A stretch of DNA of 49,166 bases, filler included, from Bipalium vagum (taxonomy: Eukaryota), in assembly GCA_037834085.1 (NCBI GenBank). It is 2 parts of 2 records of this genome, joined end to end, with 100 filler letters (N's around TTAATTAATTAA, not from the genome) between each part and the next. Parts side by side here need not be neighbours in the genome. Positions count along the whole stretch, not along the records: positions 1 to 30,845 come from JBBMKC010263122.1; 1 more part is not named here. One strand, 5' to 3'. Numbering within the stretch: position 1 is the stretch's first letter; each line of letters opens with the position of its first letter. The notes below the pieces were generated by a model, which was given only the letters and a program-made list of their open reading frames with translations, made no database searches and was not told where the DNA came from. A program made the position numbers and the translations under genes. Positions 1 to 37,425 of the stretch are shown one piece after another.

Positions 1-1289
1 ATCAGAAATAGATATTAAAATTTTTCGATTATTTTTACAATTATTTGTATTTAATCCAAAAATTTTAGTTAAACATTCTGATTATTATAATAATTCTTGT
101 TTTAATGAAATTATTTTCACTCAATGTTTAATTACATAATTATCATTAACGTTAATAACGTTACTGAAAGTTCTTTGTCATGTCTGAAGATATTGCAATA
201 ACTACCATTTATATTTAAATTAAAGGCTTGTGATTAAAAATAATTTTACTGGGAAAATTAAATTAATAATTAATATATTTTATTTTGTCCAATAATAAAA
301 ATTAAATTGAAAGAATATCAAAAGAATTTCCGTTACATTCTATTTCTTTTATTTTATAATCACTTGCTACATTTCCTTTGTTTTTGGGTTTCTTTTTGTT
401 GAAATAAATATCTTCCGACATTTTCCTCGTATTCATGGAAAAACTATGATAAATAATTTTAAATATAAATTAAATATTATTATTTTAAATTTAATAAAAA
501 AAATAATGTATCACTTTATCAAATATTTGATCAATTTTATTTAGATTATTAATTCATTTTATTCCTTCTTCTTGTGGTGAATTTGAATTATAAATAAGCT
601 GATATCGCGTACTAATTCAAATTTCAATGACGTAATATTCAATACAAATATGGAACCCAAGGTCGCCTAAGAAATAAAAAAAAAGAAAAGAGTTATTTTT
701 AGATTATTTAAAAAATTGCACTGTTCCCAAAAATATTATTGAAGAGTTTGGTACGATCATGAAAAATTTTGATAATAATTATGAATGACAGATTTGAGTC
801 ATTATTGGTTAGGGAAAGAAAGATATTAAATATTAATATGCAAACCGGAAAGTGTAAAAATCAATAATCTTTAATCAATAAATTATATTATTTTAGATTT
901 ATTAAATATATTTTTAAGAAATTATTATTTATCAAACATATTTTCATTTAAAATAATAAAATAAGTAAAAAATTAATTGCTGTTTTTCCGACGATTGAAA
1001 AATTTAGGTCTCAATCAAAACTCGACTTGCATACAATTTTATAAAGAAGTTGATACCTTAAGAAACGTTATATTGTAAAGATGTCATGATTTATATAAAT
1101 TTATTGCTTCTACGTTAAGGTCAATTTGTGATATTGAATTATAATAGTAGGTTTTGTATATAATCTGTGTATTTAAAGCTTAAAAATATTTGAACCAACA
1201 AAAATCCGGGCAATTTGGCTGTAGTCATCCACATAATAGTTAAGTTTGTCTTTATAAATCAATTCATATATATTTGAAAAAATCAATAT

Positions 1290-1720
1290 TCATTAATATT
1301 CGATCAATAGAATTCAGAATTGGAAAACAGAAATATAATCTTGCAAATATATGGAAAATACAAATCTCAGTATCCGAGCAATTTCAAAAGCCCTAAAAAA
1401 TACCAAAATCAACGTCAGTGATGTCATACAAAGGTTCAAGGAGATATTAACTAAGAACAGGAAGAGTGATAGTGGTAGCTCGCAAGGCCAAAACGAGGCT
1501 CAACAAGTATTTAAATATTTTGCAAAATTCAGAAATTGTAAACAAGGTCTATCGCTCAAAAATTAAATAATTCGAAGTCTTTTTTGCAGAGAGCAAAAAG
1601 GAAAAGCAATTTAGGAAAATTCAAAGCAAAAAAGATTGTGATGTGAAGAAAAATCAAAAACTATTTAATCAATTATTAACAAAGTGAAAATGTGTTGTCC
1701 TGGACGAGACGAAACATATC
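1290..1720 (+). mobile_element. Decayed Tc1/mariner-superfamily (DD37E-like) transposase, N-terminal part
   Basis: ORF 1351-1566 is HTH-like (SIRAISKALK..VSDVIQRFKE..RKSDSGS). Downstream ..RDETY resembles the CILMDDETY first-Asp motif of DD37E elements. Interrupted by stops. Confidence 0.55.
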
Positions 1721-1932
1721 TTTAAAAATTTTAAATTTTAACATGTGATATTATTTTTATGTAATATACATTATCAGTGTTTCATGTAATGTTAAACTAT
1801 ATTTATTTATTAGTGATTAATTTTGTCATTTTGTTTTTATAAACTAGTTTAAGTGTCAAGATTTTGATTTGGTCACCTTTAATTATGAAAAATTACTAAT
1901 TCAGATTAAAAATTTTATAAAATATAAATAAC

Positions 1933-2015
1933 ATAAATAAATAAATAATATAAATAAATAATATAAATAAATAATATAAATAAATAATATAAATAAATAA
2001 TATAAATAAATAATA
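1933..2015. repeat. AT-only tandem repeat, about 13-bp unit (TAAATAAATAATA)n
   Basis: About 5-6 visible copies. Confidence 0.8.
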
Positions 2016-2347
2016 TCATATTTTTATTTATAATTTGTTGTCTTAATTGATTCGTATATCGTTTTATTTTTCGATCCTTCAAAAATCTTTACTTTGTTTT
2101 ATATATCTGTTATGATATTAAATATCCATAATTTTTATATAATGGGATAAATTTCTGAGAGTTTAGGGTTGACCAGAAGTGGCATAAAAGGGATAATAAT
2201 CATTTTTCCTGCCAAATCCGTTTTAATTGCCCCAGGCTCTTGAAATGATAAACGATTTTTTACAGAAAATATCACATTTCAGATGATTGATAATTTTAGC
2301 GAATTTTACGAATGAGTTTAAAAATTAAAAGTGGAAATATTTATAAA

Positions 2348-2700
2348 TATCTGGTTGGCAAGGAAGTTCGTGTGCTTTATAAAGAAAAGATAAAATCAAA
2401 ATACTTTATTGACAAAAAAATTTAATTAATGATCTTTCTCATTCTTTCCACCAAATTCATTATGCCAAATTAGTAGAATTTCTGTTAGAATCAATGTGAG
2501 ATGGGCATCCAGGGCGGGATGCATCATTCATATCAAATTCTCTACAACTGAATTTGGCAAACCATTTTTGATATGCTCGAATTGATAAGATATCATCACC
2601 ATATACTTTACACATCTTCCTGTTCATGCGAGATTCGCTTACCTCTTTAAAATTAATATAATATTTAAAAATAATTTAATACTTTCCTTTGTCAAAATGA
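2348..2700 (-). mobile_element. Truncated mariner remnant with one TIR
   Basis: TIR-like TATCTGGTTGGC at 2348, the same start as the TIR at 4663. Minus strand reads VYGDDILSIRAYQKWFAKF..DASRPGCP, a mariner HTH region. Confidence 0.65.
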
Positions 2701-2994
2701 AACAATAAAATATGACGAAAATGCAGTTTTTTTATCTTGCACAATAATATTTTAATTATCGTGTAAAACTGTTATATTATTTAAACAACACTGAATGATT
2801 AATTTAGGAAATTTGATTTATAAATTTCAATTTTAAAAGCTTTCTTACAAATATTATTATACATATTATATTATTATTAAATAATATTATTATATTAAAT
2901 TAATATTTAGAGATTTTCAAAGTACTGTTAATAATTATAATTTTTTATATTTTGTTGAAGGTAAAATAATAAGGTTAAAAACACTTTTATTTAC

Positions 2995-3192
2995 CTCCAA
3001 TAAGCATGGTACATATGGAAAATATTTTTTCCGAATTTGTATTTGGAGAAACATTCCCAAACCCTACACTTGTTAGGCTGCTACACGTGAAGTAGAGAGA
3101 GCTGACATAGATCGTGATGTTTGACGGGCCTCCAGCATTAAAGTTTGGTGAGTATGGACTCTCCATTTTTTCAGCCAGTTCGTGTAGCCAAT
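2995..3192 (-). CDS. elk: Elk (Kv12/KCNH3,4,8-like) K+ channel exon: turret, pore helix, GFG filter and start of S6
   Basis: cttacAG|AT...GGAG|GTaaat, 198 nt, phase 1/1. Translates (N)[65 protein letters not shown]. The ORF track shows a different frame here. Confidence 0.95.
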
Positions 3193-3439
3193 CTGTAAGA
3201 CAAATTCATTAAAAGATTGATAAAAATAAAGATTTCCTTGTTGTACATGACAGATCTTCAATGTTCAATGTATAACACATTTCCTTTCCATTATATAAAA
3301 ACTGTCAATAATGAAAAGTGGTCGATTACAAACTGTGATAACTTTTAAATATGTTGCTCTAATACCATTATTTTTATAAATTACATTGTTTATGTCTCAT
3401 GTTATCTAAATAATCTTTGATTTTGTAGATCAATAATTG

Positions 3440-3895
3440 TTAGCCACAAAAATAGGTAAACAAATTGAAGTGAGAAAGAAAATTTTGTCCAATTAAAATG
3501 GAAATACAGCTACCTCGTATTCAACAATCGCTAAAAATGTCTGAGTTGCAAAATAAACCGTTCAAAAATTATTTCAAGCTACAAGAAGACTTGCTTTTGA
3601 ACGGAGAACAGGTTCAGTTAAGAAAACAGGTTAAATTGATACAAGCAAGGTGATCAGTAGGTTTAAGAAAAATTCGTCTCTTTCATTATACGATGTATAT
3701 AAAAATGTAAATCATCTAAATCTAAATCTACAAAGTGAAGCAGAATAATATATTGAAGCCTTACAAAGTCACTGTTGTTCCTGATCGTGATGAACAAAAG
3801 AGTGAAATTTCTAAAACCTGTTCAAGAAAGCTTTATGAAAATTTTCTAATCAAAGTTGATTGTGTTATTATGGACGATGAGACTTTTCTACATTT
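3440..3895 (+). mobile_element. Decayed DD37E-like transposase fragment
   Basis: ORF 3735-4016 contains YKVTVVPDR..RKLYENFL.KVDCVIMDDETF, then runs into AT-rich sequence. Confidence 0.65.
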
Positions 3896-4662
3896 GGAAA
3901 AAAATTTAATTTTCATCAAAATTGTATCAACACTAAATCAAAAAATTTACATTAAATGGTTCCTTCAAAATGTCTATTGCATTTTATTAATAAGAATAAT
4001 TTTTTTACTTTGTTAAAAAATTTACGATTTTAATGAAAAGATTTAAGGTAGCAATAAAATGTTAAGACAATTTAATGATCTGTGATAATATTTACAAAAA
4101 GAATATTTGAAAAAAGAAATTGAAAAGTTGTTTCGGAATTCTGGAAATGTTTACTGGATAAGCACCGATGTCAACCCAATTAAATATAAAATAATAAAAT
4201 CATTACTGTTATTATACTTAAAACCAAGACCACCGGCGTTAATTTTTGCAAAATGTTTGTTTTAATCAAAAACCCAAACGTCACTTTAATTGAACTGACA
4301 TTAATTTTTTAAATCGATTTAACAAGATCACTATTTTTGTTACTGATGTAGTTAAATATTCTTCTAATTTTCATTAAAATTATACAAATATTTCTCTTCA
4401 CTTTATTTTTCCCTATAAAATCTTCTTTTCACTAAACGCAAGGAAAATACCAGAGATGATCATATTGGTCGTATATAAAAACGAGGTTTAGTTTTGTTTT
4501 AATGTATAGATTATAAATAAGAAAAGAAGGATTAAATGAGAGGTTGATATAGAAATAATGGATCTTGTTCTGGTACGTTTTGTAAGGTAATTACGAATTA
4601 AATTTTACTTAATATTATGCATTTCATTTTAATTTAATATTAATTAATATTTTCACTAAATA

Positions 4663-5691
4663 TATCTGGTTGGCTAATACGTTTTTAGACGTTTAACACA
4701 AAATTTATTGAAAAAATTATTGCGCGAAAAAATAAATTAACTCCAAGATGCAATCAACCTCATTCTCTATTACTTTCTGATAGATTTCTGGAAAACTTTA
4801 GATATCATTCTCCCAGAACTTTGGAGGTTGTGATTCGATAAAGTTCTCCATGTATTTTTTGATTTCATTCTTATCATGGAATTGTGTGTTACCAATAGAT
4901 CGTTGTATTTCTGCAAATATTGTGTTGGAAACAAAAATAAATCGGACAAAACGTATTTATTACCAAAACATTATCATCTAGTATTTATTGCCTGCAATAA
5001 TTATGTAAATTTATTTATAGATAAGTTGTTTAAATAAACCATATTTCAGCTCACATTTCAATATATAAAATTTCCGAGAAATCAAATATAAATTTGCAAT
5101 GACGAGCTCTTGTGAGCAGATTTGACAAATGGTTATGTGCATAAATTGTTTGCCTTCAGTCAAATAATGTGGGACCAATTTTCCAATCATACTGACTTTT
5201 CCAGGCTTGTGCAAATGACGATAAATGGTTTAATAAACACCATTAAACCTTTGAGCAAGTTCTATGGTTGCAATAGTGCGGTTTACTTCGATCATTGTTA
5301 AAAGGGCGTCATCATTAATCTGTGTACACAAATCACTAACAATTTTCTAACAGTACCACGCGGTTGACCTGTAAAGTCAAAATCTCAAGGACCGAAATGT
5401 TCGAATCTATTAAAGCACTTTGAGCGTTGATAGCATTCTCACCAAAAGCTGATATGTGCTGAATTTTGATGATTAGTACATGATAAGAATAAGCAGAACG
5501 TCTAGAGATAACTTCACCAATTGGGAATTGATTCTTATGTATTTTTATTAAATTGATATACTGTAAATAAAGTACCAAAGGTCGTCTATACTTATTCTCT
5601 AAAAAAATAAATTTTAAGATGTTCTTCTTTTAATTATGTTAAAATAATGATTGGTGTTAAAAAGTCTCAAAAAATATTAGCCAGCCTGATA
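4663..5691 (-). mobile_element. Internally deleted mariner with both TIRs, inside the Elk intron
   Basis: Left TATCTGGTTGGCTAATACGTTTTTAGAC vs reverse complement of right end TATCAGGCTGGCTAATATTTTTTGAGAC, flanked by TA. Degenerate GKLVPHYL (WVPHEL) and SQPPKFWEND..QKVIENE. Confidence 0.85.
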
Positions 5692-7348
5692 TATAAAATT
5701 AAAATCATTTATTTTAGGTGTTTTAATAGATTAATATTAATTCAATAAAGGACAATAAAAATGTAAACAAATGCAACTTTATAACAATAATAATAAAATA
5801 TTAAAACTTTAAAAATTAAAATAAATAAAATTAAAAATAAACTTAAAAGTTAATTACCAATAATAATTCAAAAGATAATAATAATGAGAAAAAATAATAA
5901 AAGAAAACAACATAATTTAAACTTATCGAACTTTTTGAACATCAAACAACATAATTGATTTTGGAAGCCTATAAATTCAATAATTGATCTTTTTGCCTTA
6001 GCCGAGTTTGTTAGTTTCATTCTCTTTTTTATTAATATTCTAAAAAACGCAAGTCAAGCAGTCAGATAAAAATGAAATCAGATAAAAGAAAATGAGGATA
6101 TGAGAATATAATAATTTATTTATTAATTTTATACCTTTGGTAGTCCATGATGTTCCAATGTTTTTATAATCAGGTCATTTAAATTCAAACGTTTCGAAAA
6201 GCTCAGAATTAATATTTAAAATTATTTTCCTAAGTTAAAAGTAATTATAAATATTATATTAAAAATTTTATTGCATTTTAATCATTAACAAATAATAAAT
6301 AATAAAAGTCTAATAATATTATCAATTAATTTTAATAATATTAAAATAAGTTTAAAAATTAAAGAAAATTAAATTTGGTAATAAATTATTAAATACCTCC
6401 ACAATATTTGATTAAATAAATATTAATTAAATATTTAACAAACATATAAAATATATATAAATTATATTTATATATAAATTTTATTTAAAATTATTAAAAT
6501 ATTATATTTATTTAAAAATATAAATTTACAAATTGTACGTTCAGAATTATTTATTTCTAACCAAATATATTTCTTTATCAAACATTTTGTTCAATGGGAA
6601 ATTGTAAAAGAATCATATAATAGATTTCCAGACTTTTTCCATAATTGACATTTTATACACCTAAGGGCTGGTAAGAATCTTCAGAGAATTAAATGTCAAT
6701 AATATTTTATTTATATTAATGATCTTAAAACTGAATTCTATAATGGACTGCAATTTAACTTGAGGAATCCTTTCAATACAACATATTGAAATATGATATT
6801 AACAAAACAACAAAAAGCGTCTTATGAGTTGAAAATATTCACATTTTATCAATGTTATCTATTTGCGGAAAATACAATTTATTTTCTATATGTATAAGGT
6901 GTAGTACATAATTGTAATACCATTTATATTTCAATAAATACAAATAATATTCTTCATATATAACATTTTTACACTAACCAGTGCATGTTTAATATGTAAT
7001 AAAATATTTCAAGGTCACTTTGGATATTCTGTTATAAATATCTTTTAAAAACAAGTAATGTATAATTATAAGACCACGTCATATATAATAATGGTTAAAT
7101 ATTGATTATATGGATTAGAAAATTTTAAAAATGCCATTATTAATCAAAGTGGATTTTGAAAAAAAATAAAATTATTCAAGAAAGGTTAAGAACATCGCAA
7201 GATTTCGAAAAGAGATAATCGTTCCTATAAGAAAATTTATAATTTCTTGAAAAATCAATGAAATTTAATGCTGCTAAGAAGCGCGAACTCAACAGAAAGC
7301 TGAATGCTCGTTCCGGACGCCTAATTTGTCAAGAAGTCAGTAACAAAG

Positions 7349-7615
7349 TCATCTAGTGTGGTAACATTGTTGAAAATCTAAACTTAGGAGTATCAAGTGG
7401 GAATGTGAATCGTGCCATAAAACATTGTTTGGGTTTCCGTTATTGAATCTATTGAAAGTTTTTCGGCTCCAGTTGACTCGAGCTACTTTTTGTTCATAAT
7501 TTAAAAGATGTGCGATCCAACAAGAAACTAACTTCCTCACATTCACACATAATGAGGTCTTTGAAATGCTCAATGAACACTGCATCTCACGATATGTTGC
7601 ATATCGATCTTCCAT
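7349..7615 (-). mobile_element. Mariner transposase fragment
   Basis: KLVSCWIAHLLNYEQKVARVNWSR resembles the K.CSRWIPH.LT..QK..RV.WC motif. Confidence 0.7.
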
Positions 7616-7954
7616 AAAAATAAATTAAATTAAATTTCCTCTATTAAAAAAAATGTAAACTGAACAAAAATTTTAATTATTTTAAATTTATATAATTTTT
7701 TCATGAAAACATAAAACTTTTCATAATAATATTTAAAAAGAGAATTGAGAGCGAATAATAATTCTTTTAACGAAGATCTCATACAAATTCTGAATTAAAT
7801 AAAAAAATCATAATGAAAATAATTTCAAAAATCAGATAAAAGATTTGACCGTTCCAATTTTTTACTTAAACCTAATTAATAATTAAAATCGCTCAAATAC
7901 ATATTTTTAATTATATCAAGAAATTTTAATTAAATTAAAAAAATATATTCATAC

Positions 7955-8156
7955 TGATATTTTTTGTGGAATTTCCCGTTAATTCCGCTTTTCCAATAAC
8001 ATACCATATGCAGGCCAGCCAGTGAGCGCAAAGGGCAAAAGCAGACATCAAAAGAGCCAGCAAGACGCTGCTATATTCTGCATAACGATCTATTTTTTGT
8101 AATAATCGGATCAGCCTCACAAGACGGGCTAACTTCATCATCTGGATCCTGGCTCC
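7955..8156 (-). CDS. elk: Elk K+ channel exon: S4 voltage sensor, S5 and start of turret
   Basis: tttatcAG|GGA...ATCA|GTatga, 202 nt, phase 0/1, splices in frame to 3192. Translates [75 protein letters not shown] and WYVIGK are Elk-type. Confidence 0.95.
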
Positions 8157-8535
8157 CTGATAAAAGGTGGATTGGTTTTTAAATTCATTTAAACAATTTT
8201 CGACAATTAAGAAGACAGAATGTTAAAAAATAATAATTTCCAAAAACCAAAATAGAGTCACAGATGAATGAGGTTAAAGGATAAAAACAAAAAAAAGGAT
8301 GATTTAATAATTTAGTAATTTTTTTGTTTAAAATAAGCATATCTTTTTATTTACAAAATGAAACAAATTACCAAAGACTGTCTACGTTCTTAATTCCGTT
8401 TTATTAATTTTAATTTTCACATGATTTAAAATTCAGTGATTGATAATAATAATAATAATAATAATAATATTAATATTAATATTACATGGGAATAAATATA
8501 AATAAATAAATATAAAAATAAATATAAAAATAAAT

Positions 8536-8666
8536 NNNNNNNNNNNNNNNNNNNNNNNNNNNNNNNNNNNNNNNNNNNNNNNNNNNNNNNNNNNNNNNNN
8601 NNNNNNNNNNNNNNNNNNNNNNNNNNNNNNNNNNNNNNNNNNNNNNNNNNNNNNNNNNNNNNNNNN
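8536..8666. other. Assembly gap (N run)
   Basis: 131 N flanked by AT low-complexity sequence. Confidence 0.99.
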
Positions 8667-8779
8667 ATTATTAAATTAAGTATTTCTGGATAAAGTTAGT
8701 TTTAGGAAAAATTATATAGAATGAGGAAATATATTATTATAAATCATTTTATTTAGATTACTTTTAAGCATAATAATAA

Positions 8780-9450
8780 AAAGATTATTTAGCTTTTAAG
8801 GCTTCTCCTTGCATATGAAGTCTCTTTGGTTTCTGTCTCTTATGAAAAATTATACGACTGTTTTTGCCATTTAAAAATTATGAAATAACATGAGGTCAAA
8901 TTTCAGGTATTTATTATCTTTATATCAGCACCTAAAAGTACTGGTACTTGCACCCTTAAGCGTTGTACTCTTTTATCATTGTCGAATTTACTGATCATTC
9001 CATTCATTTTCTAAAGCATAATGTATATGAAGGTCGACATATTTGCTGAATTGTGAATGCGTACAAATTCGTGTAGTGAGAAGTCGCTCCACCTTATTTG
9101 TGTCGGAAATAAATTCCACATAACACGAGTTTTTTTATTTTTAATATTATAGTAAAATAATAGGTTAATTCGTTAATAATAGAAAGTAGGAATATTTTAA
9201 TGCAATAAAAAACCTCGATCATACACATAGTTTATATTTACCACTCTGTCCTGAAGCTGTGAAAATGTATTCAGTGTCTACATATGATCTTAATTTAACT
9301 ATTTTTCCCCGAGCACTGATCACCGGCAAAACTGCAATGTGATGACAACCTACAGAGAACCGAAATCAGAATAAATAAATCAGGGTTTTAATAACTTGAT
9401 TTCTCCCTTCTTCGTGACACTTCAAAGCCGCCCTAGAGGCTTCATCTTCT
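8780..9450 (-). mobile_element. Decayed Tc4/Tc5(pogo)-like transposase remnant
   Basis: HIAVLPVISARGKI..YIFTASGQSGK resembles the HSYTIMPTISADG..V.ASKSGK motifs of this group. Confidence 0.4.
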
Positions 9451-9849
9451 CAAATCCCATTATTTTCATTATTATTAATTAAATTTAATTACATTTCATT
9501 TACTTTGTATTTAAATATTAATTTCAATTTTAATATTTACTTTATTTCATATGGGAAATATTAAAGAGAAAATACTCTTTGTATAATTCAGAATCGAAAT
9601 GCCCTTCTTGTTTTAAAATTAATAATATTATTCTTCATTTTCGCGTCCATGGTTGAAATATATATCATATAATATTTTTCAAGAAATATTTTATTTTTTG
9701 TTATTTTTTCTATTTTGATTATTTAAATCAGGCCTATGAAGATATTTGACCGACCCGTGACCGCATTCTAAATAACGATAATATTTTAATAAACAAAAAT
9801 TGTTTTAATATTCATTCAAATGCAATGTTTAAATTAACCAATGAATTCA

Positions 9850-10185
9850 AAGATATCAAAGTAGATGGCGAATGTCTAATTTTTCGAGATACTTGGACGA
9901 TTGATTATTTATTTATTGACAAAAATGGAGAGACAAAATGTTTTATTAACCTTGAAAAGATTGCTATAAATAAAGTGGAAAATATTATATGACCCACCAT
10001 TTCGAAAATTTTAAAAAACTTACTAGAGAATCAAGGAGAGATGAAGTCAGTAAGCTGAAATCAAAGTTTGAAAAGCAGACATCGTTTTTTATGAAGGAAA
10101 GAAGTGAATGTGAAACTAATACACGTACAAGCTATAAAGTGTCAAGACTTATCGCTGAAAAGATGAGACCGTTTATTTGTTTTAA
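9850..10185 (+). mobile_element. hAT (Buster/SPIN, GTF2IRD2/EPM2AIP1-like) transposase N-terminal fragment
   Basis: KVDGECLIFRDTWTIDYFFIDKNGETKC..THH..LKSKFEKQTSFF..RTSYKVSRLIAEKMRPF matches the degenerate zinc-finger region of SPIN-type transposases. Truncated. Confidence 0.8.
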
Positions 10186-11272
10186 TAACTGTGTAATTAT
10201 TTCATTCAACATGCTAATGTGAAGATGGTGGGTATTCAAGAGCGTGAGGGGTACGTTTTCTTTTAATAAATGTTTCAATATTTTATTTATTAAAAATGAA
10301 TGATGAAAAAATAGATGTTAAATATGTTAAGCAATTTGGGATAAATACGGTTTCGTTTCTATTATTGTATTATTAATTGTCTTCATCAAACTGAAACGAC
10401 TTCTCTGATGAAATTTAAAACGATGTCAATGGATCTTAAGAGAGTAAATGAGGTTTATCCGGTTCAGGCTTTATCAGATGAAAATAAACTGGTGTAAGAC
10501 AGAATCAGAATGATATGAATTCAGTTTCCATGGCTTACGTCGAGAGCGTCACATATTCTCATCCATTGGTCCCAGGGGGCGGTCTTGAGAAACGTCTGTT
10601 GGAAGTCGTAGCATCGTTTATTGGTTTAATATTTGATAAATGTCTCTCAATGTCTGATCCTACAAATTTGGAAAATTTACACTTTTTCCAATTTTATTCT
10701 TGGGGTTTACGAAAAACGTACTGAATTCTTTGGCCCAAATGATATTATGCAGTTAAAATATAATTATTTATTTTGTCAACTAAAGTAAATATTGATTGAG
10801 CTGTCTTAATTATTTAAACAAAAATTTTAGATTATTATTTAATTGTGTTATATAATAACTAATAATATTAAATTATAATATATATATCAAAGAATAAATT
10901 ATATATTTCCAGATGAATATTATTTTATATTATTTAATTATAACGGAAAACGATAGTTTAATTTTTAATATTTTTAAGCATTAATTTAATTACATGACAA
11001 AAGCTCTATCAATTTTCAATTAATAAAATTAGTTAAATATGTTATAATCATTTTTAAATTAAAGTTATAATTCTGGAAAATGTTCTGCTTCTACATAAAA
11101 AAATATGTACGGGCAATTATTTTTTATATTTTATAAATAAATAAAAATAAATAAAATAAATAAAAATTTTTTAATTTAATTGAAATAAAATTTTAAAAAA
11201 TAATTATATATATTGCATCTATAATTCATTTATCAATAATAAATAAAAAAAAATTAATTAATTAAATAATAA

Positions 11273-11408
11273 NNNNNNNNNNNNNNNNNNNNNNNNNNNN
11301 NNNNNNNNNNNNNNNNNNNNNNNNNNNNNNNNNNNNNNNNNNNNNNNNNNNNNNNNNNNNNNNNNNNNNNNNNNNNNNNNNNNNNNNNNNNNNNNNNNNN
11401 NNNNNNNN
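11273..11408. other. Assembly gap (N run)
   Basis: 136 N. Confidence 0.99.
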
Positions 11409-12339
11409 TATTAAAATTACCGTTATTGTTTAAATTGACATTTCACATTTTCAATTTCTTTCAAATGTTCTTTTAATCATTTTAATCATAATAAAGGAAA
11501 ATGTATTTTAATGATTTTATTATGCATTGTTTACCAAAAGGTTAATCTATATGTCACCATACGCCTTTTGCCTACCAGTATACCAATATCCTCAAAATTA
11601 GACACTTCATATTTTCATGAAACGAGAATATGTTAGGCTCCATGGCATTCTATAAATAACATTTTTATAAAAATTTTATTAAATTTAATAATTCATTTTT
11701 GCGGTACACATTGAAAAATGTCTCAATGAAATCGACAAGCCATCAGTTATATATTTGAAACCTTTAAAAAGAGAACAAAGTTTTGGACTTTTGTTTTTAA
11801 TATAGTTGAAATTAAAAGTGATTTGAAAGAGTTTTCTCATTATTTATAATAACTTCATTTAATATCTTAGAAAACATTTTATTTAAAATGTCTCCATGAT
11901 AAAATCAAGTAAAAAAATTGTGAGACCTATCTGTATTTCATAAAAGTTAGCATGAAGAAACATGTTTTTAAATAATACATTTGATTAGAAAAAACAAATA
12001 AATAAAAAAACTTTTTCCGGAATACTTTATTTAATTATACTTGTTCGCATTTAATCTTTTAAACGTGTTTGAGAATTTACAGCTGAAACAAACACGTGAT
12101 GATTACTTTAATTAAAATAACTAATTTTGACCAATAGTAATTCTGAGAATTTAAACTGACTTCTAATTTTTGAAATTTTATATTGTGCCTAATTTAAATT
12201 TTTAATTAATTGTAAATTTAATTTTAATATTTAATTTTGAATATATATTTAAAAATAATTTTTATTGAAATAAATAAAATAAAATAAATAAATAAAAATT
12301 GAAATAAAAATTAATTACAAGACCACAATATATCGATTT

Positions 12340-12760
12340 ATTATGAATGGAAAATTTGTCTAACTATTATTATTGTTTTAAAAAGACATTTAAATTCATA
12401 TCTTTAAAACAATGACTGATTTTGTTGATATTGCCTCTAAGAGAAGTAATGTAATATTTTCAAGGACAGCGCAAGACCACACAAATCGCTACGGAGTCCT
12501 CATAAATTGAATAACTTTAAATAGAACTATCTTACACACTCACCATATTTCTCAAGATTTGTTTTGATAAGTACAGATTTATTTTAATAACTACATCAAA
12601 TGAATTATATCGATTTAAATTAAGTCAATTAAATTAAACTATCCAGTCTTTTGAAACTTGTGAAGCCCCTATGTCTCTTTCTCTTCATCGAAATTCCAGA
12701 AATTCTACAAGGATGAAATTATGTAGGTGTCTCATGGTTGGTAGGTGGTGATTAAAAACA
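12340..12760 (+). mobile_element. Highly decayed mariner C-terminal remnant
   Basis: Traces of DNARPH (gacagcgcaagaccac) and PEFYKDEIM. Confidence 0.45.
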
Positions 12761-12904
12761 ATAAAAAAATATCAACCTAAAAAATGTTTATCTAAAAAAT
12801 CAATTTATAATTTAAATTAAACACAATTTTTAATTCGATAAAACAAACCAATAAACAATATGTATCTTAAATTTATTTAAATCTTTTATATTTCTATTCA
12901 TTTT

Positions 12905-12905
<1 letters not shown>

Positions 12906-12941
<36 letters not shown>
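12906..12941. repeat. (AAT)n microsatellite
   Basis: About 11 units. It produces the poly-Ile in ORF 12830-13036. Confidence 0.95.
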
Positions 12942-12942
<1 letters not shown>

Positions 12943-26849: not shown

Positions 26850-27775
26850 AAATTAACTCATAACACCTAAATAAAGATTTCGATCCTTTGGTTTGTATAA
26901 TTTCAAAGCACCTTTATTGATATTCGATATTGGTCCCAGTGATTATCTTTGAATATTTTTTTCAATTTCTGGAACAAAAAATGTACAATAGAATATAGCC
27001 AGAATTCTATGGGAGATGTTAAAGTATTTCTCAACGATATTCTCGAAGTACAGCTCTCGACAGATTTTACAAATGTGTTGGCACATTATCATGGTAAAGC
27101 AAAATTTGACGTTGAAATTTTCCCTAGAGTTGCTTTACAAGCACATCATAATGTTTTCGCAAAACTTCTTCGTAGTAGTACTTAACAGTAACTGTCCGCT
27201 GTCTCTCGAAAAAATTAACCAGGATTACAACTTCAGAATTCCATAAAATAGTGCATTATGAAACGCTTTTGGCACAAATCTTGTTTAGAATCATTAAAAT
27301 TGAATTATCCATATGATATACCCAAAGAATTGAGGTAACCTGGACTGATACTTGCATATTTTCTTAAACCATCGATTAGACAGCAACTACAATTTTCTCA
27401 GTCATTGCTGATGATGGTCATTCAGTTCGTTGTTCATCTTTTATGTCCTCTAGGTCTTTCTTAAATATGCTTACCCATTGAGAATTTTTTTTCCTTATCA
27501 TTTCGATAAACTTTTCTTAAAGGTTTGATGATATCTGATATTTTCCATCCGAGTTTCATTATCACATGGCATTCAAATTTCGATATTTTCATTTCCTAAA
27601 ATGATTAGCTTAAACAAATATATATTTTTATTTACGTTATATGTTAAATTGATTTTAATAAAATTCTATTTAATGTTATTAAGAAGTGTGATGAACACAA
27701 ACAAACTTTTTTAATTACTGTAATAATTTGTTAAAAGTCAGAATCATTCAATTAACTTTTTGATTCACTATCGTA
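26850..27775 (-). mobile_element. Decayed mariner
   Basis: MKLGWKISDIIK..KWVSIFKKD..DEQR (HTH) and HHDNVP (catalytic) traces. TIR-like end near 27775. Confidence 0.65.
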
Positions 27776-28116
27776 AGCGTTATTAATGAGACATTTCGAA
27801 GTGGTATAAATTTTATATTTCGAGTTTTTTGAGTAGTTTGCTCAATTGAGAATGAATGCAATTTTGTTAGTCATATTATTTAGAAGTAGGAGGATAAAAA
27901 ACAAAGTAAAAATCAATATTTGAAAAAATTATTTTAAGAAAAACCTTTTAAGAAAAAAACTTTTAAGAAAGTATTATGAGGAGAGAATTTAATATAAAAT
28001 TTTATAATGATAGAATATATAAATTCGTATTACAATTATTACTAAAACTCATACTATTAATGTTTTATGTTATATTCCGGAAGATTAGCTTAATGATAAT
28101 ATTAACCAGTATTCTG

Positions 28117-28132
28117 ATTATTATTATTATTA

Positions 28133-28177
<45 letters not shown>
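28117..28177. repeat. (ATT)n microsatellite
   Basis: About 20 units. It produces the poly-Ile in ORF 27976-28281. Confidence 0.95.
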
Positions 28178-28178
<1 letters not shown>

Positions 28179-29639
28179 ATATTTTATTTATCCAAAAGAT
28201 AATAATGAAAAAGTTCTTTTTTTATTTATAGAACTTATCAAACAAACAAAAATTAAAATTTTAAAGCTTGGCTCAAAATAGTTTGTTGTTTTGATTTAAT
28301 ATTACTTCTTTTCCCGTTTGATTAAATAAATCAATTTTTGTTTTTAACTAAAAAAAACTTATAAACAACTTTTTTCATTTTTAGAGGAACATCATTGTTT
28401 ACAAAAGTAAATGTTTTACAAAAGAATTGTTTCAATGAAGAAATAGTGATTTGTTTTTTCTTTTGACAAATTTGGTAGAGTAAATTTACTGGTTATATTT
28501 TATTTTATTTATTTTTTTAAAAAATATCAGCATTAAAAGGTAATTAATAGAAAATCAATTTATAATTTTATTGATTGAAATTCAATTTATTCCTGTTTTG
28601 TTTAATCGGGCTATTTAGAAATTGTAAGGTCATGAATTTTCTTAAACTTTCTAATAAATTTTTTATTATTTTTAATGAAATTGGTTATGTTAATATGTTA
28701 ATAAATTATTTTGACAAAAATTAATAACTTAATACCATAAAATAAAAATTAAAAGACTTACTTTATTTCACCTTTAAAATAATTATAATTTATTCCATTA
28801 AAACAAAATGGGCTAAACTGAATTTAATCAATTTTATTTACAATAATTACAAAATCTAATGATTATTTTATAATATAATGTAATTATGATATTTTTATCA
28901 ATTTTTGTCAATATTTCAAATATTATTATTACTAGAAAATTAACTAAACTAATTTAACTTTCAAGCCTTTCAATATTTTTTTTATTATTTTGTTATAATT
29001 AGAGTTTCATGTCACATTATTCTAAACGATATATTTGCAAATTATTTTTAAAGTTAAAACTCAGAAATTTTCAGTCAAAACTGAAAAGTAAATATTTAAC
29101 TGTTGCAAAAAAAATTGTTTAAGTTTACTGATAAAAGTCGAACTAAAGAAACTGAATGGAGAGCACCTGTGGAAAATATTTTACAATTTCCATTATGGAA
29201 TGATATTTGTAATCTAATTTTAACACTAATTTTAGACTTGTAACTTGATATTTGAGCTATTTTATGGATTTAATTTCAAATTCAATGAATTTAATTTAAT
29301 TCCCAAAAAATAGTAATGATAACAAATTTGATTTAGAATGACACAAGAAAAATGGTCAAATTAACATAAATTTTAAGACTTCAAATTATATTCGTAATGA
29401 TGGATGTTTCCCATTATTGCTTTCTTCGTTATATTTAGAATTTTAAAATCTTGGGATTTTTGGATTTCAAGTCTTAAAATAAATATTATATATAATTTTA
29501 TATCTATCCTAACGTATGGAAGTTAATATTGTTTTCTTGTTTTCTCATTTGTTTGTCAAATTTGCTAATCTTTGTCACAGTAGATTGTGTCATATGAAAT
29601 GTCCGATTTCATAGTAATTTAAAGTGTGTGTGTTACACA

Positions 29640-29653
29640 ATCACCATGGCAAC
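29640..29653. promoter_or_regulatory. Candidate RFX X-box in the Eag intron
   Basis: ATCACCATGGCAAC fits RTHNYYWTRRNRAC fully. A second site with one mismatch, GTTTTGATAGTAAC, lies at 29746-29759. Confidence 0.4.
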
Positions 29654-30062
29654 GAACAAAATAGGAGATTCAAAGTTTTTTTTATTATTACTAATTTTAT
29701 AGAAAAATATATTCATTTCTGATATTGGTAAAATCATAGACTGCGGTTTTGATAGTAACATGTAGTGTTTGGTAAACACTACACTTTAGGTCACTAAATT
29801 ATGTTTTGTTTAAATATTAATTTTTTACCTCGAGATCTGCCATAAGTAATAAAATACGTGAATTTCTGGAAAAAGAAATAATAAAAAATTATTTATTTAT
29901 TAATTTAATGATAAATAAAAACAGGTTAAATAATTAATATTAAACCTAATATTTAAACAAAAAATAATTTACTGACCTTAACTTCATGTTTGACTTTTAT
30001 TTATATTTATAATTTTATTTGTTATTTTTATAATTTAATAATATTTCAGCTCTGTTGTTTAG

Positions 30063-30241
30063 ATTCAAGCAAATTTGCAAGACTAGCCAGAACTGTCACT
30101 AAAAACCGATCCCTCATTCAACATATGTCAACTTCAAGTACCAGTTTGTCAAAAGTTGGAATAACCAATACCACAGACAAGAAACCCGTTCCAGATTATA
30201 TCAGATATGATGCAGAAAGTTATATAACTCAAACAAAAGAG
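30063..30241 (+). CDS. eag: Eag exon: post-PAS cytoplasmic linker
   Basis: gtttAG|AT...GAG|GTttta, phase 1/0, joins 19400 in frame. Translates (D)SSKFARLARTVTKNRSL..., resembling Eag SKFAKLARSVTRSR. The donor is weak, so the 3' boundary is less certain. Confidence 0.85.
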
Positions 30242-30283
30242 GTTTTACAATTTACAATAATTTGAAATGTAATATTATTTCAG

Positions 30284-30673
30284 AATATATCAGAAAAGTT
30301 GCCTTTATATCGCCAAGAGGCTCCGAAAACTCCTCCTCATATTATTTTACATTATTTGAATTTCAAAGCTGTATGGGACTGGATTATTTTTATTTTAACC
30401 GGATATACAGCAGTGATGGTGCCGTACAATGCTGCCTTTAAGAGTCGTAACATGGATGACATCGTTTTTCTTGTGGTTGACAGTATAGTTGATGTCGTTT
30501 TTTTTATCGATATTGTATTCAATTTTCATACGACATTTGTCGGACCCAATGGAGAAGTTATTTCAGATCCCAATGTCATTCGTATCAATTATTTAAAGGG
30601 GTGGTTTATAGTTGATCTTCTTTCATGTCTTCCCTACGATGTATTCAATGCATTTCAGCCTGAAACTACACAA
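30284..30673 (+). CDS. eag: Eag exon: S1-S3
   Basis: tttcAG|AAT...CAA|GTaatc, 390 nt, phase 0/0. Contains [73 protein letters not shown], diagnostic of the Eag subfamily. Confidence 0.96.
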
Positions 30674-30845
30674 GTAATCATTGTTTTATTTATAGAATCA
30701 AAATATTCAATTATTAATTATTTTAAATACCGTACATGATGTTCAATATTTAGGGTATCAAATTTAATCTGACTCCAAAATCTTAGGTGGTGCAAATCAA
30801 AACAATCAGTAAAGCAACACGTGTATTTATACCACACCAAAATAA

Positions 30846-30945
30846 NNNNNNNNNNNNNNNNNNNNNNNNNNNNNNNNNNNNNNNNNNNNTTAATTAATTA
30901 ANNNNNNNNNNNNNNNNNNNNNNNNNNNNNNNNNNNNNNNNNNNN
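30846..30945. other. Artificial 100-bp scaffold spacer N44-TTAATTAATTAA-N44
   Basis: Exactly symmetric. The 12-mer gives stop codons in all six frames. Confidence 0.9.
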
Positions 30946-32029
30946 ATTATTATTATTATAATTCTTATTATTATTATTATAATTCTTATTATTATTTTTT
31001 ATTATTATTATTTTATTTTAATAATTAGAACTATTAGAAGTATTTTATGAAGTTCAAAGAGTCAAATTTAAATCGTGTCGAACAAATGATTGTTACATAT
31101 ATTTGAAGTATAGTAAAATACTTATCCTATCGGATTACATTAAAATATATCTTTGATTTTACGAACGATGTAAATTTATCTTACAATGATGAAGAAAAAA
31201 TATATAAATAAATTTTAAATAAAAATGATAATATATAAAAATAATATTTCAAAAAAAGATTTAAATTTGAATAATAAAATTAAAAACTATTTTACCAAAT
31301 AATAATATTATATTATATATAATTTAATTTTAATTGGCTTACAATCAAATCCAGAAGTCAATTTTGAATGAATTTATTAAGTGATAAAACAAATAATATT
31401 TAAATCAATTTTCTCAGAACTGGAAATTCCTTTTTTAATTTTAAAAATAAGTTTACTTTCAAAATTTCATTTATACATAAAATTTATATATATTTTAAAA
31501 TATTAACCAATATAAATTAATTAAATTATTAACCACTCTTAAAGTTATAATAATTAATTTTTAAAATAATTACAATAATTCCTCAGGTCTGATTAGCCTC
31601 CTCATTAAAAAAAATTTTTAAACGCCTTTTGAAAATATATAATAATTCTTCATTAAATATTATAATTAATTATATTATATTTATTATTATTTCATAATTA
31701 TATTATATATTATTAATTTAATAGTATTATGATATGACATAAATAAACGAGGTATAATAAGGAAAAGAGAAATAGATCTTTTTAATTAAATAATCAACTT
31801 TAAAATTTTCACTTAATTAAAACAAAAGTGATATTTTTTTATGAGCCAGAAAATTATTTTCCCTTTTATAAAGAATGTGATTGTAAAAGTTCAATAAAAA
31901 GAATAAAGGAATAAATATGAAGGATGTAATAAGCCTTTATTTCTCTGAGGAAAAGGTGTTCCAAGATTTCGAGTTTTGGGATATGAAAAAAGTTGACCCA
32001 TTGGAAGTTATGCGGTTCAGAGATGTCAT

Positions 32030-32240
32030 CGTTAAAATGGCAAAGGAAGTAAAAGAACGCCTTTCCAGGTGTCTCAGGCTTGCAGGACCCACTTCAGTTT
32101 TATCTTTCACGATGAAATGTAAAATGTGAAAGGTTGCCGCCCAGCTCAGGTGCTCACACGACAGTGCATAAGCAGAGATTATCCGAAGAGCCCAACAATG
32201 AAACGACGAAGATGTAACGGGAAGAAAAATCAATTAATCA
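32030..32240 (+). mobile_element. Possible maT/DD37D-like transposase N-terminal remnant
   Basis: LRLAG..HDSA*AEIIRRAQQ*NDED resembles the N-termini of this group. Weak. Confidence 0.3.
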
Positions 32241-32903
32241 TAATTTTCATTTAAATGCCCATTTATTGTTTATGCCTTATCCACGGACAGAAATATCTCT
32301 CCCCAGGCCTTCCATTGAGAATCCATATGGTATTAATAGGCCAGTGAGACAATCTCAGTGTTTTTGTTTATTTATTTATTTCTGTGGAGGCTCTGTGTGG
32401 ACTTCCGTATTCGTAGGAGCTGTACTAAAATATTTCTCAACGAAATCAAGATTAATATTTTGATTAAACATCGTGGAGTAGAATAAGGAGGATATATACA
32501 ATTAATAAGATTAATGACCCCAATTATTTCCTTCTCCATTTCTGCCATTGTCTTTTGTTGGTTGCCATGCTAGAGAAAAATCGAAAAATCTGCGAAAATC
32601 TGCAAAAAGAACGATTTTTGTTCCCTTGAAAAATTGATATTTCTTTGACAAATTTTTTCTTTTTTTCAAAATATTTTTACGAGAAATACTTTTATTGGTA
32701 ACATAACCCTTTACCTCTTTTGTCTTTTCAAAATTTTTTTTGTGGTTTTGGAAACTCAATGGAACTACGTAGAAAACTGAAACAGGACTTCTTTGTTTAT
32801 CTGATAAGTCTTGGTGTAAGAAATCTAAAACAATTACTTTAGTCCTGTGATTTTCATTACTCTTCCGAAATCCGTACATTATTTGACTGCGAACAACGCA
32901 CTA

Positions 32904-34149
32904 TATGTTGTGTCAATAACATTCCAGGACTTTAGCTGTACACAAAATCAAAGGTGCATAAGACAACAACAAATCATATTTCATTAGTCAAAGTAGTCAC
33001 CATTGACTCGAATGCACTTGGTACATCTTTTATACAAAGTGGCAAAAATATTTTTGAAGTCCTCTATTGGTCTACCCTTTAGTTCGCTGTAACATTCAAC
33101 TGAATAACCTCAATATCATGAAACTTTCTTCCTTTTAGTTTTGGGAATAGGATGAAATCTGCTGGACCTAAATCCGGCGAATATGGTGGTTGGTTGATCA
33201 CCATAACTCCTTTTTCAGCCAGAAAACTCTTTACGATTATTGAGTTATGAGAAGATGCGTTATCATCCAGTAAACTACAGCTCCCTTTATTACTGTGCTG
33301 AGGTCTAATTCTGCGAATTCTTTTCGAAAGTCAAGACATCACTTCTCTGTAATAAACAGCCTTGACTGTTTTATCTCTAGATAGAAATTCTTTCTGAATG
33401 ACTTCATCAAAATCAAAAAACGTGATCAAGAAAGTTTTAATCTTCGAATTTTGGAGAGCTCTTTGAACACCATTGCATGCTCTGTTGTTTCGTTTCAAAA
33501 TCATATTGAAACAACTGATCACAAGTAACAATCTATGTGATAAAATTTGGATCAGTATGACAAACGATTTCTGCATCAATCAACTCTGCGTTGCCACTCG
33601 TCAGGAGTCAAACTGTGATGAACAAACCGTGAGTATTTTTTTCTTACATAAATCCTCCATCAGCATCTTCCGAATCGATTCTCTATTGATTCCAGTTTGA
33701 TTATCGAGTATCGGCTTCAACAATTTCTTTAATTTTGTCAATATTTTCATCTTTCCTGGAAATAGGTGGACTGCCACTTCTGTCATTATCAAAAAGAACA
33801 CCACGGCCTTCAGGAAAGCGAGAATATCATTCAAAGTCTCTATATCTTGATATTGTATTATTCCCATTCACGATTTTCAACATTTTGTAGATCTCCATAG
33901 GTGTTTTGCCTAATGTATTGCAAAATATGACATTCACTCTCTGTTCCATTCTGAAATTGAGACAATACCTAAAATTTTTGCAGATAAATTAAGCAAATTA
34001 CTCCAGATAAACCAATCGCTCGTTGAAATAAAATATTCAGAAATTTCAGTGAGCTGTGTCGTGTGCAGCCAATATAAACAACATTCCTTTTATAACTGTA
34101 TAATTCGTGTTATGATAATAGTCTTGGAACTTTATTGTCACACAATGTA
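32904..34149 (-). mobile_element. Full-length (about 1.25 kb) degenerate mariner, irritans-like
   Basis: TIRs TATGTTGTGTCAATAACATTCCAGGACT and reverse-complement TACATTGTGTGACAATAAAGTTCCAAGACT, TA flanks. MEQRVNVIFC..GKTP, FQYDFETKQQSMQW, LLDDNASSH, PPYSPDLGPADFILFPKLK, with stops and frameshifts. Confidence 0.92.
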
Positions 34150-34599
34150 TAATATAATACATAGATCTTCATCGGTAACTGTGTCATTACTGATAACCCT
34201 TGAATAGCAAATACGACCTATTGAAACACTGGATAATAAAGACACAAATAACAGGAAAATTCGGATATTAACCCTGGCTCCATACTTAATGGGTTGACTG
34301 AACAATTATTTATTTTATTAAAAAGCACTTCTTTATTAATTTCTTAAAAACCGGCGAAAGCTGTGCAAATTTTGCAGAAGACTAAAAAGATATTATTTTT
34401 CACATTTAACATATTTAATGAAACATATTTCACATGAAAATGGAATTCCTTGGCTTCCAAGATGGTACACAAAAGAGACACACCAGAGACAGTTTAATTT
34501 ACAGTGGAGATTCCTGGTGAAATTGAACTTTGGTTTAAATATATTTTCCTCTCATTATTTTGATTTCTTTTCCCTTTAATATCAGTCGAGAAAGCTCAA

Positions 34600-34980
34600 T
34601 AATAAATGAAGAATTAATTCGTTTTCAACAACTCTGATTGCCATGGATATCTTCTGTGAAATAGGGTTAGGGAAGCAATCTCTGTTTGTTTTCGATGTTG
34701 GAAAACATAATCATGGAAATGTTGAAAAACTTACAGAAAAATAATCAATGGCAAAACGGTAGGTACATTCCTCTTCCTGTCAACAATTTCTTTTGAAGAT
34801 ACTTTCAGAAATGCCATCTGATAATATTTTCGAGATTTTTTTTCATAAAAATATTTCATTTTCCTTACTCCGAGAGATTTCTACTGTTAGAACGGTTCTA
34901 AATATGAATGATTCCGCGGCAGTCTTTCCTTGTTTGAAATCATACGCCACACAAATGTGGATTTGGTATTTTTAAGCTTA
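34600..34980 (-). mobile_element. Mariner N-terminal remnant
   Basis: YDFKQGKTAAES motif typical of mariner N-termini. Confidence 0.5.
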
Positions 34981-36379
34981 TTTTCCAACTAAAAATGAAG
35001 AAATTAAAAATAATATTAATAAAATATTATAAATGAGACAAATTTATATAATAAAATTTAAAATGCGCGGTATTTGGTTGTTTATGCAATAATCGATGTT
35101 ATTCATTTAAACGCATATTTCTAACTTAATCAAATATAACGAATAGTAATTTAGTAATATTTATTTAAAATATTTTTATAACCATTTTAATAACTTGTCT
35201 CGAAGAAAATCTGTGAGAAATTTTTTCATGTTTTTATTAAAAGTTTTGAAGTTTAACAAATCAATCCTTTACAGTGATATAGACCATTATAGACCACATA
35301 CAACGAACCTATATCGAACCTATTCTGCAGCATGTGAATTCAATTGTAAAAAATATTCAGTGTAGGTGTGAGAAATGCTGGTTTTATTTGCATGGCGTTG
35401 TATTTCTAAAAGTTGTACGCAGAAATAAAAAATTAGAAATTTTGCATATCCCTAAACAAAATGTGATTTGTCAATAATTAAATATTTTGGTAAAACAACT
35501 TAAAATAGGCAATAACATAAAAAAATCATTAAGTATTTTAAAAATAATAATATTATGATAATTATTATGATGAAATAATAATATTATTTATCACAATAAT
35601 CAATTTTTAAATGGAAATAACGAAATAAAACATAGAGATTCACATCAAATTGTCTGTGATATTCTGAAACAGATCAAACAGTTCTGATCCATGCTGAACA
35701 TCACTGGATCAGAATTTGTCCAATGAAATGCCGTCAAGCGGATCAGCTTGATTCCATCGTCTGTTGAGGCAGTACAGACTCCGTCTGGCTTGTTGAAGCT
35801 ATTTACACCAGGAATTTTGTTCACAAGTCAAAATAAATTGCCAATGAAGAATATTTTGAGAATTTTGTTAATATGATATTTTCTCTTGACGACTTCGAAT
35901 GATAAAATGTTTGACTGAAGACAAATGACAAATATTTAGATTGACTTCGGATCAGAACTGTGATTATATCAAAAAGGGGTTAATAATCTTTGGAGTAGTT
36001 CTTTTTACTCAATCTATCATTTCTTTAATACTTTTCACTCAAACAGGACTTCAGGAGAATTTAAATCAGGTACTGTGGACGACTGATGCTTGTAGAAAGT
36101 ACAGCTCACCTCTAAACCCTTGTACATAAAAAAATGGAATTGTAAAAATCCATATTTTTTGTAGACCTTTTTGAAAATAAAACTTCTCTTAAACTAAATT
36201 ATTGTTTGACATTTGTTCTCTTAAGGTAATTCAGCCTTTATGTGGACAAATGAGTAAAGTCGTTTTTTAATAATTCGCATTCAATCAATTAATAAATTGT
36301 TTAAATATATCAAAGATTTTTGGCAATTTTATGAATTAAGTTTAATAAGTAAACATCTCTCGATTAATTTGATGATGAT

Positions 36380-37200: not shown

Positions 37201-37425
37201 CAGGAGAGTAACTTTTTCAACCTGTACCTATGATAAAACAAAAAATTTTTTATAATTGGTTATTATTATAAATTATATATTTTTAAGAAAACTTAAGCAA
37301 GAAATATAATACTCCCGATAATGGTATAAAACGCAAAAAAATGCAGTATAAAAATAATAATAGAGAACTCTGATATTTGAGATTGTTCGATAATAGGAAA
37401 TAGATTGGCTCTAATAATAATAATA

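Follow-up and report, generated by a model that had tools for sequence, protein, structure and literature searches.

Eag and Elk potassium channel exons on opposite strands of a Bipalium vagum scaffold: an apparent interleaving that rests on two assembly gaps

Exons of two KCNH channel genes

The window (the whole 49,166 nt stretch of DNA analysed, from assembly GCA_037834085.1 of Bipalium vagum) carries exons of two KCNH potassium channel genes on opposite strands, on two contigs, A and C, that are separated by a third, contig B (Table 1). Three exons lie on the plus strand, the last two of them separated by an intron of 42 nt (GT..AG), and when spliced they specify 233 aa without a stop codon. 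The PAC exon matches Pfam PAS_9 with an E-value of 2e-4, which is under the curated cut-off, the PAS domain being seen only as its PAC end. The S1-S3 exon is 80–83% identical to five flatworm Eag references, and scores 237 bits against the Eag profile versus 127 and 100 bits for Elk and Erg. In trees, these exons fall within Eag (support 100/99) and within a flatworm Eag clade (100/98), and on such comparisons they belong to the Eag subfamily (Kv10). The intron positions that follow the PAS core and S3 are shared with this subfamily (Drosophila eag, KCNH1/KCNH5, Macrostomum P0002 and Cryptocotyle P0005). The window has only three internal Eag exons, and its introns are far longer than those of compact metagenome loci.

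Table 1. Positions of the exons, introns, contigs, gaps and other features in the window.
Feature	Position	Strand	Length	Details
Contig A	1-8535			carries the Elk exons (minus strand)
Elk exon: turret, pore helix, GFG filter, start of S6	3192-2995	-	198 nt	phase 1 to phase 1
Elk intron	3193-7954	-	4762 nt	GT..AG; T-rich on minus strand
Elk exon: S4, S4-S5 linker, S5	8156-7955	-	202 nt	phase 0 to phase 1
N gap 1	8536-8666		131 bases	joins contigs A and B; an AAT/AT low-complexity patch precedes it
Contig B	between N gap 1 and N gap 2		2.6 kb	
Conserved non-KCNH block	9331-9584	.		in contig B
N gap 2	11273-11408		136 bases	joins contigs B and C; a 94% AT patch precedes it
Contig C	11409-30845			carries the Eag exons (plus strand)
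Eag exon: end of PAS (PAC) domain	19269-19400	+	132 nt	phase 1 to phase 1
Eag intron	19401-30062	+	10662 nt	GT..AG; holds transposon remnants
Eag exon: PAS-to-S1 linker	30063-30241	+	179 nt	phase 1 to phase 0
Eag exon: S1-S3	30284-30673	+	390 nt	phase 0 to phase 0
Artificial spacer	30846-30945		100 bases	44 N, a 12-base palindrome, 44 N

The two minus-strand exons, when spliced, specify 133 aa, are free of stops, and include both the GFG potassium filter and a charged S4. The pore exon matches Pfam Ion_trans_2 (E-value 1e-10). The Elk profile is the top scorer for both exons, with a narrow margin over Erg in the case of the pore exon (81.5 versus 78.2 bits). Identity to KCNH8/KCNH4 over the S4-pore piece is 62%, and the piece is placed within the Elk clade (Kv12; KCNH3/4/8, Lineus P0243) with 99/99 support, on a long end branch (0.73) and in a comparison that holds no named flatworm Elk. 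By profile and tree, the minus-strand exons belong to the Elk subfamily; Erg was ruled out by the tree, and an origin as S4-S6 of the same Eag gene by an identity of 40–43% to flatworm Eag. The leftward direction of the Elk S4-pore exons and the rightward direction of the Eag PAS-S3 exons, both proposed in an earlier, sequence-only reading of this DNA, are borne out by splicing, profiles and trees.

The Elk exon at 7955-8156 is matched at about 90% in sequencing runs X2 and X4, and among the differences listed, 14 of 15 are at third codon positions (a hand count over 40 of 203 rows). This pattern of third-position changes indicates purifying selection on the exon, and rules out a dead Elk fragment. 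The conserved block of contig B matches one contig in each of the same two runs, at about 87% identity (9379-9584 in X2 and 9331-9575 in X4). It was rejected as a missing KCNH exon, as it gave no KCNH match by profiles or tblastn; it also gave no Rfam match, and an Rfam search of 8667-19268 returned a single match at chance level.

Search for the remaining exons

Eag, Elk and combined profiles were run on all six-frame pieces of at least 8 aa (3724 pieces), together with tblastn searches (12 Eag, 14 Elk/Erg and a further 10 Elk/Erg queries) and a motif scan. The five KCNH exons were matched with E-values of 1e-80 to 4e-6, and the next best piece scored 8.3 bits. Neither Eag exons 1-2 nor the Eag S4-CNBHD exon, the Elk PAS and S1-S3 exons or the Elk C-terminal exon were found in the window by profiles, tblastn or motif scan. 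Sensitivity was gauged by spiking in pieces of held-out proteins. Eag 5' pieces were recovered in 62/77 cases at 20 aa and 62/62 at 35 aa, falling to only 38/82 at 15 aa, while recovery of Elk S1-S3 pieces was 77/83 at 20 aa and 71/71 at 35 aa, and that of Elk PAS pieces 48/48 at 20 aa. Most of the absent 5' exons, if present in the window, would have been detected. The lack of Eag and Elk 5' exons noted by eye in the sequence-only reading is accordingly upheld for the window, and the tblastn search with Eag and Elk proteins that it had proposed as a check gave no further exon of either gene in the window. No third gene was found by Pfam among 98 ORFs (selected largely for their length and GC content), which gave, besides KCNH, only transposase remnants and weak sub-threshold matches.

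Assembly layout and contiguity

Within the assembly it is true that exons of two genes lie on opposite strands with the other exons of each gene not between them. If 1-30845 is contiguous DNA, the transcription units of Eag and Elk therefore overlap in antisense. The layout so confirmed is that of the assembly, not of the animal, and the apparent interleaving rests wholly on the two N gaps. Their positions, and that of the spacer at 30846, agree with those given in the sequence-only reading. At 131 and 136 bases, the gaps are unlike a fixed 100-base spacer and resemble read-pair estimates, an observation that counts against a false join; read-pair gap estimates are physical evidence and usually right.

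The 100 bases to the left of N gaps 1 and 2 have AT contents of 93% and 94%; 1.9% of 968 windows reach 93%. Self-blastn gave a single inverted match of 35 bases and showed no duplicated contig ends, and when the six gap flanks were aligned locally, only low scores resulted (maximum 57). The palindrome within the spacer introduces stops in all six frames. This spacer is plainly artificial, which means that the scaffold went through some joining step in addition to gap estimation; a literature search for its source yielded mostly bacterial pseudo-chromosome and cloning papers, with no source named. The DNA past the spacer need not adjoin 1-30845 and says nothing on the layout, so the earlier argument that no Elk 5' exons occur up to 49166 falls away.

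None of the six sequencing runs listed was of RNA, which says nothing on expression. Contigs of runs X1, X2, X4 and X6 were placed on 6500-11050, with repeats skipped. An 884-base contig of X1 equals 7583-8433 exactly and ends in the repeat before N gap 1; X1 shares 0.98 of words and may be the sample from which the assembly was made, in which case it is not independent. Among the contigs and joints listed (15 of 62 joints, and 32 rows of pieces out of a table with 1459 more; repeats skipped) none crosses N gap 1, a result without weight in either direction.

Base composition differs between the two outer contigs. Once exons and the flanks of splice sites had been masked, contig A showed a T-A skew of -0.048 and contig C one of +0.025 (p of 0.0004–0.0024 by one-sided block permutation), each contig being T-rich on the sense strand of its own gene only. 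A T-rich sense strand is also found in 24 of 34 Eag loci of other animals (median +0.02). The sign change counts against overlap, because nothing about two genes reading through both contigs would call for one. It is a small effect that was tested post hoc and calibrated on other animals with near-duplicate loci, and the contrast shrinks to -0.030 (A) against +0.025 (C) when AT-rich windows are removed.

A point added by the present analysis is that the two exon sets meet at one homologous intron: the Eag exons end, and the Elk exons begin, at the phase-0 S3/S4 intron. The bordering exon edges are 172 (Eag) and 379 (Elk) bases from contig ends, the junction of the Eag S3 exon to the Elk S4 exon is in frame with both sides in phase 0, and flipping contig C gives the exon order of a single colinear minus-strand KCNH gene. 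Such colinearity would fit a misjoin driven by homology and, with less likelihood, a chimera. It may also be by coincidence that the exon sets are complementary, because the S3/S4 intron is common to other Eag and Elk genes.

Interpretation of the arrangement

We lean, by a little more than an even chance, towards the view that these are real exons of two ordinary flatworm genes whose contigs were misjoined at one of the N gaps, the genes themselves probably not overlapping. Contig A would then lie inside an Elk gene with long introns that runs leftwards, and contig C inside an Eag gene, also with long introns, that runs rightwards. Breaks in the assembly may have arisen at AT-rich patches, and reads wrongly mapped to these patches could have led a scaffolder to link the three contigs; alternatively, a homology-guided step may have taken two paralogous contigs as successive pieces of a single KCNH gene. 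Either gene would yield a normal, subfamily-restricted tetrameric channel, with its other exons on other contigs. PMC3546802 names paralog confusion as an error mode of protein-guided scaffolding, and the SWiPS chimeras described there likewise adjoin contigs with complementary paralog exons; unlike them, the window has opposite strands and gap sizes that are not fixed. There are also pipelines in which regions conserved across related species guide the joining of contigs (PMC11225021). Against a false join, a random misjoin would seldom land on a paralog, a homology-guided one should leave both parts on one strand, and the introns seen here are already 4.8 and 10.7 kb, so that lengths of 20–40 kb would not be absurd.

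Real antiparallel interleaving, with A, B and C contiguous, we consider unlikely. It would require an Elk S3/S4 intron of at least 22 kb containing the Eag exons, and an Eag second intron of at least 19 kb containing the Elk exons, and the converging polymerases might interfere, which could favour one channel per cell or allele. The absent exons are missing at good search sensitivity, the gap sizes appear estimated rather than fixed, both genes are long-intron, the Elk exon is under purifying selection rather than dead, and paralog neighbours are accounted for no worse than by a random misjoin. Set against these points are the skew that changes sign between contigs A and C, and the absence of an antisense KCNH exon from all 80 Eag loci of other animals that were compared, a set with only 18 loci of 10 kb or more and with none demonstrably from a flatworm. 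No interleaved Eag/Elk arrangement was found described in the literature searched. If the scaffold is right, the locus resembles the embedded or divergent antiparallel overlapping pairs treated in PMC2330155, with introns shared on opposite strands; embedded antiparallel pairs are the rarest class of human overlaps in its Table 2 (16 of 749 pairs), and, unlike the pairs treated there, the partners here would be paralogs of one channel family. The overlap of transcription units proposed in the sequence-only reading thus keeps its sound logic and its correct Eag and Elk labels, but its premise of contiguity is unproven, and the skew, the AT patches and the spacer lean against it. Its suggestion of retained linkage is itself unlikely, and retained ancestral Eag-Elk linkage was rejected on the same 80 loci and on the nearly complete loss of ancestral synteny in flatworms that is reported in PMC11410931.

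An ordinary head-to-head pair, in which the genes are true neighbours and many kb with both 5' ends and promoters were lost at an understated gap, appears quite unlikely. In its favour, the genes are oriented as a divergent pair would be, the skew agrees on either side, paralog adjacency is explained without overlap, and the conserved non-KCNH block of contig B could be regulatory. However, gaps of this size are too small for Eag exon 2 (about 75 codons in many other animal loci) and cannot hold the Elk PAS and S1-S3 exons, and read-pair links are too short to span kilobases. Very unlikely, in our estimation, is a chimeric gene on the minus strand that combines Eag PAS-S3 with Elk S4-pore, contig C being misoriented or inverted, or an equivalent product of opposite-strand trans-splicing; such a product would combine most of an Eag voltage sensor with the S4 and pore of Elk. 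In its favour, the two exon sets complement each other without overlap and are in frame at phase 0, and flipped C gives one colinear gene. This has some likeness to trans-splicing of the mod(mdg4) type, in which exons lie on opposite strands and all come from one gene, but the exons here come from two subfamilies. None of 224 scorable proteins mixes subfamilies between S1-S3 and S4-pore (244 examined, 20 incomplete; judging by their names, none is from a triclad), an Eag-type S4-pore is present in the five flatworm Eag references, and the shared S3/S4 intron is ancestral. A chimera also requires two rare events and still leaves Eag exons 1-2 absent.

That Eag and Elk, which split before the cnidarian-bilaterian divergence, are truly interleaved on opposite strands over more than 30 kb in this flatworm lineage, where collision could select the channel or the in-frame S3/S4 junction could give a hybrid Eag/Elk channel, is rather doubtful. 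If the arrangement is an artefact, it is a caution that short-read drafts can set paralogous exons side by side, giving the look of a nested gene or a chimera. A real overlap would be a natural experiment in transcriptional interference for a pair of channel genes, in animals that otherwise keep little synteny. Eag and Elk subunits do not co-assemble across subfamilies, according to PMC9989356, and a hybrid Eag/Elk transcript, if one exists, would inform how subfamily-specific assembly and gating are encoded.

The Eag and Elk exons

Five KCNH exons were found (table below). All three introns have GT..AG borders (Eag, 10662 and 42 nt; Elk, 4762 nt), and the spliced frames are free of stops over 233 (Eag) and 133 (Elk) residues. 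The 42 nt intron (30242-30283) lies beside the 10.7 kb Eag intron. The nearest relatives of the Eag exon are flatworm proteins, and in a maximum-likelihood tree of 41 rows the S1-S3 exon falls inside the flatworm Eag clade (support 100/98). In a second such tree (42 rows) the S4-pore piece falls inside Elk (99/99) on a long end branch (0.73). References with <70% query coverage were excluded from both trees, and the Erg labels were assigned from sequence, apart from one protein named KCNH2-like. Region profiles matched the subfamily calls of the trees, the margin for the pore exon alone being narrow (Elk 81.5, Erg 78.2 bits). The sequence-only reading had the Elk exons pointing left and the Eag exons right, and splicing, open frames and trees bear this out; the two N gaps and artificial spacer that it named are also confirmed.

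Features of the window and their coordinates
Feature	Position	Strand	Details
Contig A	1-8535		
N gap 1	8536-8666		131 bases
Contig B	8667-11272		
N gap 2	11273-11408		136 bases
Contig C	11409-30845		
Spacer	30846-30945		100 bases: 44 N, 12-base six-frame-stop palindrome, 44 N
Contig D	30946-49166		
Elk exon	3192-2995	-	Pore; spliced translation, tree
Elk exon	8156-7955	-	S4-S5; spliced translation, tree
Eag exon	19269-19400	+	Spliced translation
Eag exon	30063-30241	+	Spliced translation
Eag exon	30284-30673	+	S1-S3; spliced translation, tree
Tc1/mariner-type transposase remnant	2463-2675		Passes curated Pfam cut-off
Tc1/mariner-type transposase remnant	24555-24761		
Tc1/mariner-type transposase remnant	33082-33330		
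Tc1/mariner-type transposase remnant	36379-36564		

The sequences KIDRYAEY in the Elk S4-S5 linker and VSPNTNSEK in the pore exon are both nearer to the Erg than to the Elk references compared, probably through convergence on the long branch. Contigs from two sequencing runs (X2 and X4) share ~90% identity with the S4-S5 exon; among the differences listed, 14/15 within the exon lie at third codon positions (hand count), and this sequence is thus under selection.

Other elements of the window

Window GC is ~26%. The Tc1/mariner-type remnants match Pfam HTH_48, HTH_23/HTH_SB and DDE_3, the first alone passing the curated cut-off. Block 9331-9584 of contig B is matched at ~87% by a single contig in each of X2 and X4, with depths similar to those over the Elk exon (154 vs 207; 8.3 vs 9-11). 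KCNH and Rfam searches of the block were negative and folding showed no clear hairpin; it may be a regulatory element or an exon that escaped recognition. The multi-copy element at 9735-10220 has broken frames, many diverged copies in runs X1 and X2 and no Pfam match; it resembles a hAT/GTF2IRD2-type transposase remnant. In contig D, 31887-32126 (+) and 48336-48908 are GC-richer with open frames but without significant Pfam matches, and may represent repeats or the exons of a further gene. C-over-G skew is marked at 11409-19268 (-0.113, interval -0.160 to -0.067) and absent from other segments.

Search for the missing 5' exons

No sixth KCNH exon was detected in the window by tblastn, profiles or motif scan, the top-scoring other piece in the profile search reaching 8.3 bits. 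Held-out controls recovered 62/77 Eag 5', 77/83 Elk S1-S3 and 48/48 Elk PAS pieces at 20 aa, and 62/62 and 71/71 of the first two at 35 aa; recovery at 15 aa was lower (38/82, 74/87 and 47/50), so micro-exons could escape. These searches uphold the earlier statement that the 5' exons of both genes are absent. It had extended this for Elk to 49166, and none was found there, but contig D lies behind the artificial spacer and contributes nothing on gene layout. Eag exon 2 is a single exon of ~75 codons in many other-animal loci and would exceed either gap at its stated size. Contiguity of contigs A-B-C therefore implies overlapping genes, and the earlier conditional claim of overlap, if the scaffold is right, is logically sound.

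Contiguity and gene layout

On balance, we favour a false join of contigs. The 100 bases left of the gaps are 93% (gap 1) and 94% (gap 2) AT, a level reached in 1.9% of 968 windows, making read mapping there ambiguous. After masking of exons, contigs A to D have T-A skews of -0.048, +0.014, +0.025 and -0.010, falling to -0.030 (A) vs +0.025 (C) without AT-rich windows; the C-A difference (one-sided block-permutation p 0.0004-0.0024) is a weak test, being small and chosen post hoc. Contigs A and C are each T-rich on the sense strand of their own gene, as are 24/34 other-animal Eag loci (those with at least 1 kb between exons among 80 retained from 125 related metagenome stretches; several are near-duplicates). 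Were each gene to extend across both contigs, no sign change would be expected. These signs lean against contiguity. In its favour, the gap sizes resemble estimates from read pairs, and such estimates tend to be correct; a misjoin made at random would also seldom hit on a paralog.

Both exon sets break off at one intron position (phase 0, between S3 and S4), where Eag coverage stops and Elk coverage starts, 172 (Eag) and 379 (Elk) bases from their contig ends; with contig C flipped, the exons line up as a single colinear KCNH gene on the minus strand. Eag loci of other animals share this intron, as two Elk open frames (P0258, P0292) apparently do, so an in-frame fit is expected; the complementary coverage alone is a coincidence needing explanation. 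It would fit paralogs joined under homology guidance, an error that the available text of PMC3546802 names for such scaffolding; pipelines that draw additional joins from sequence conserved between related species are also described (PMC11225021, whose accessible part mentions no spacer). The complementary sets would also fit a genuine chimera, Eag PAS-S3 with Elk S4-pore as one gene or a trans-spliced product, which we consider quite improbable: none of 224 scorable proteins (244 examined) was of mixed subfamily. Eag, Erg and Elk were already distinct in the cnidarian-bilaterian ancestor, and each assembles only within its own subfamily (available text of PMC9989356).

Real interleaving, each gene's exons lying within the other's intron, is unlikely. 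Among the 80 metagenome Eag loci, of which 18 reach 10 kb and flatworm origin is shown for none, no minus-strand KCNH match occurred, and embedded antiparallel genes make up 16/749 human overlapping pairs (PMC2330155, Table 2, in the portion available). Among the papers listed in literature searches that covered few subscription papers, none described Eag and Elk genes that overlap or form a chimera. A divergent pair, true head-to-head neighbours whose 5' ends were lost with DNA missing at a gap, is rather more doubtful, and other explanations are very improbable. Retained linkage, proposed earlier, is unlikely, since ancestral linkage is reported as almost wholly lost in planarians and other flatworms (PMC11410931, available part). 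The five exons are real, and represent two ordinary channel genes in fragments.
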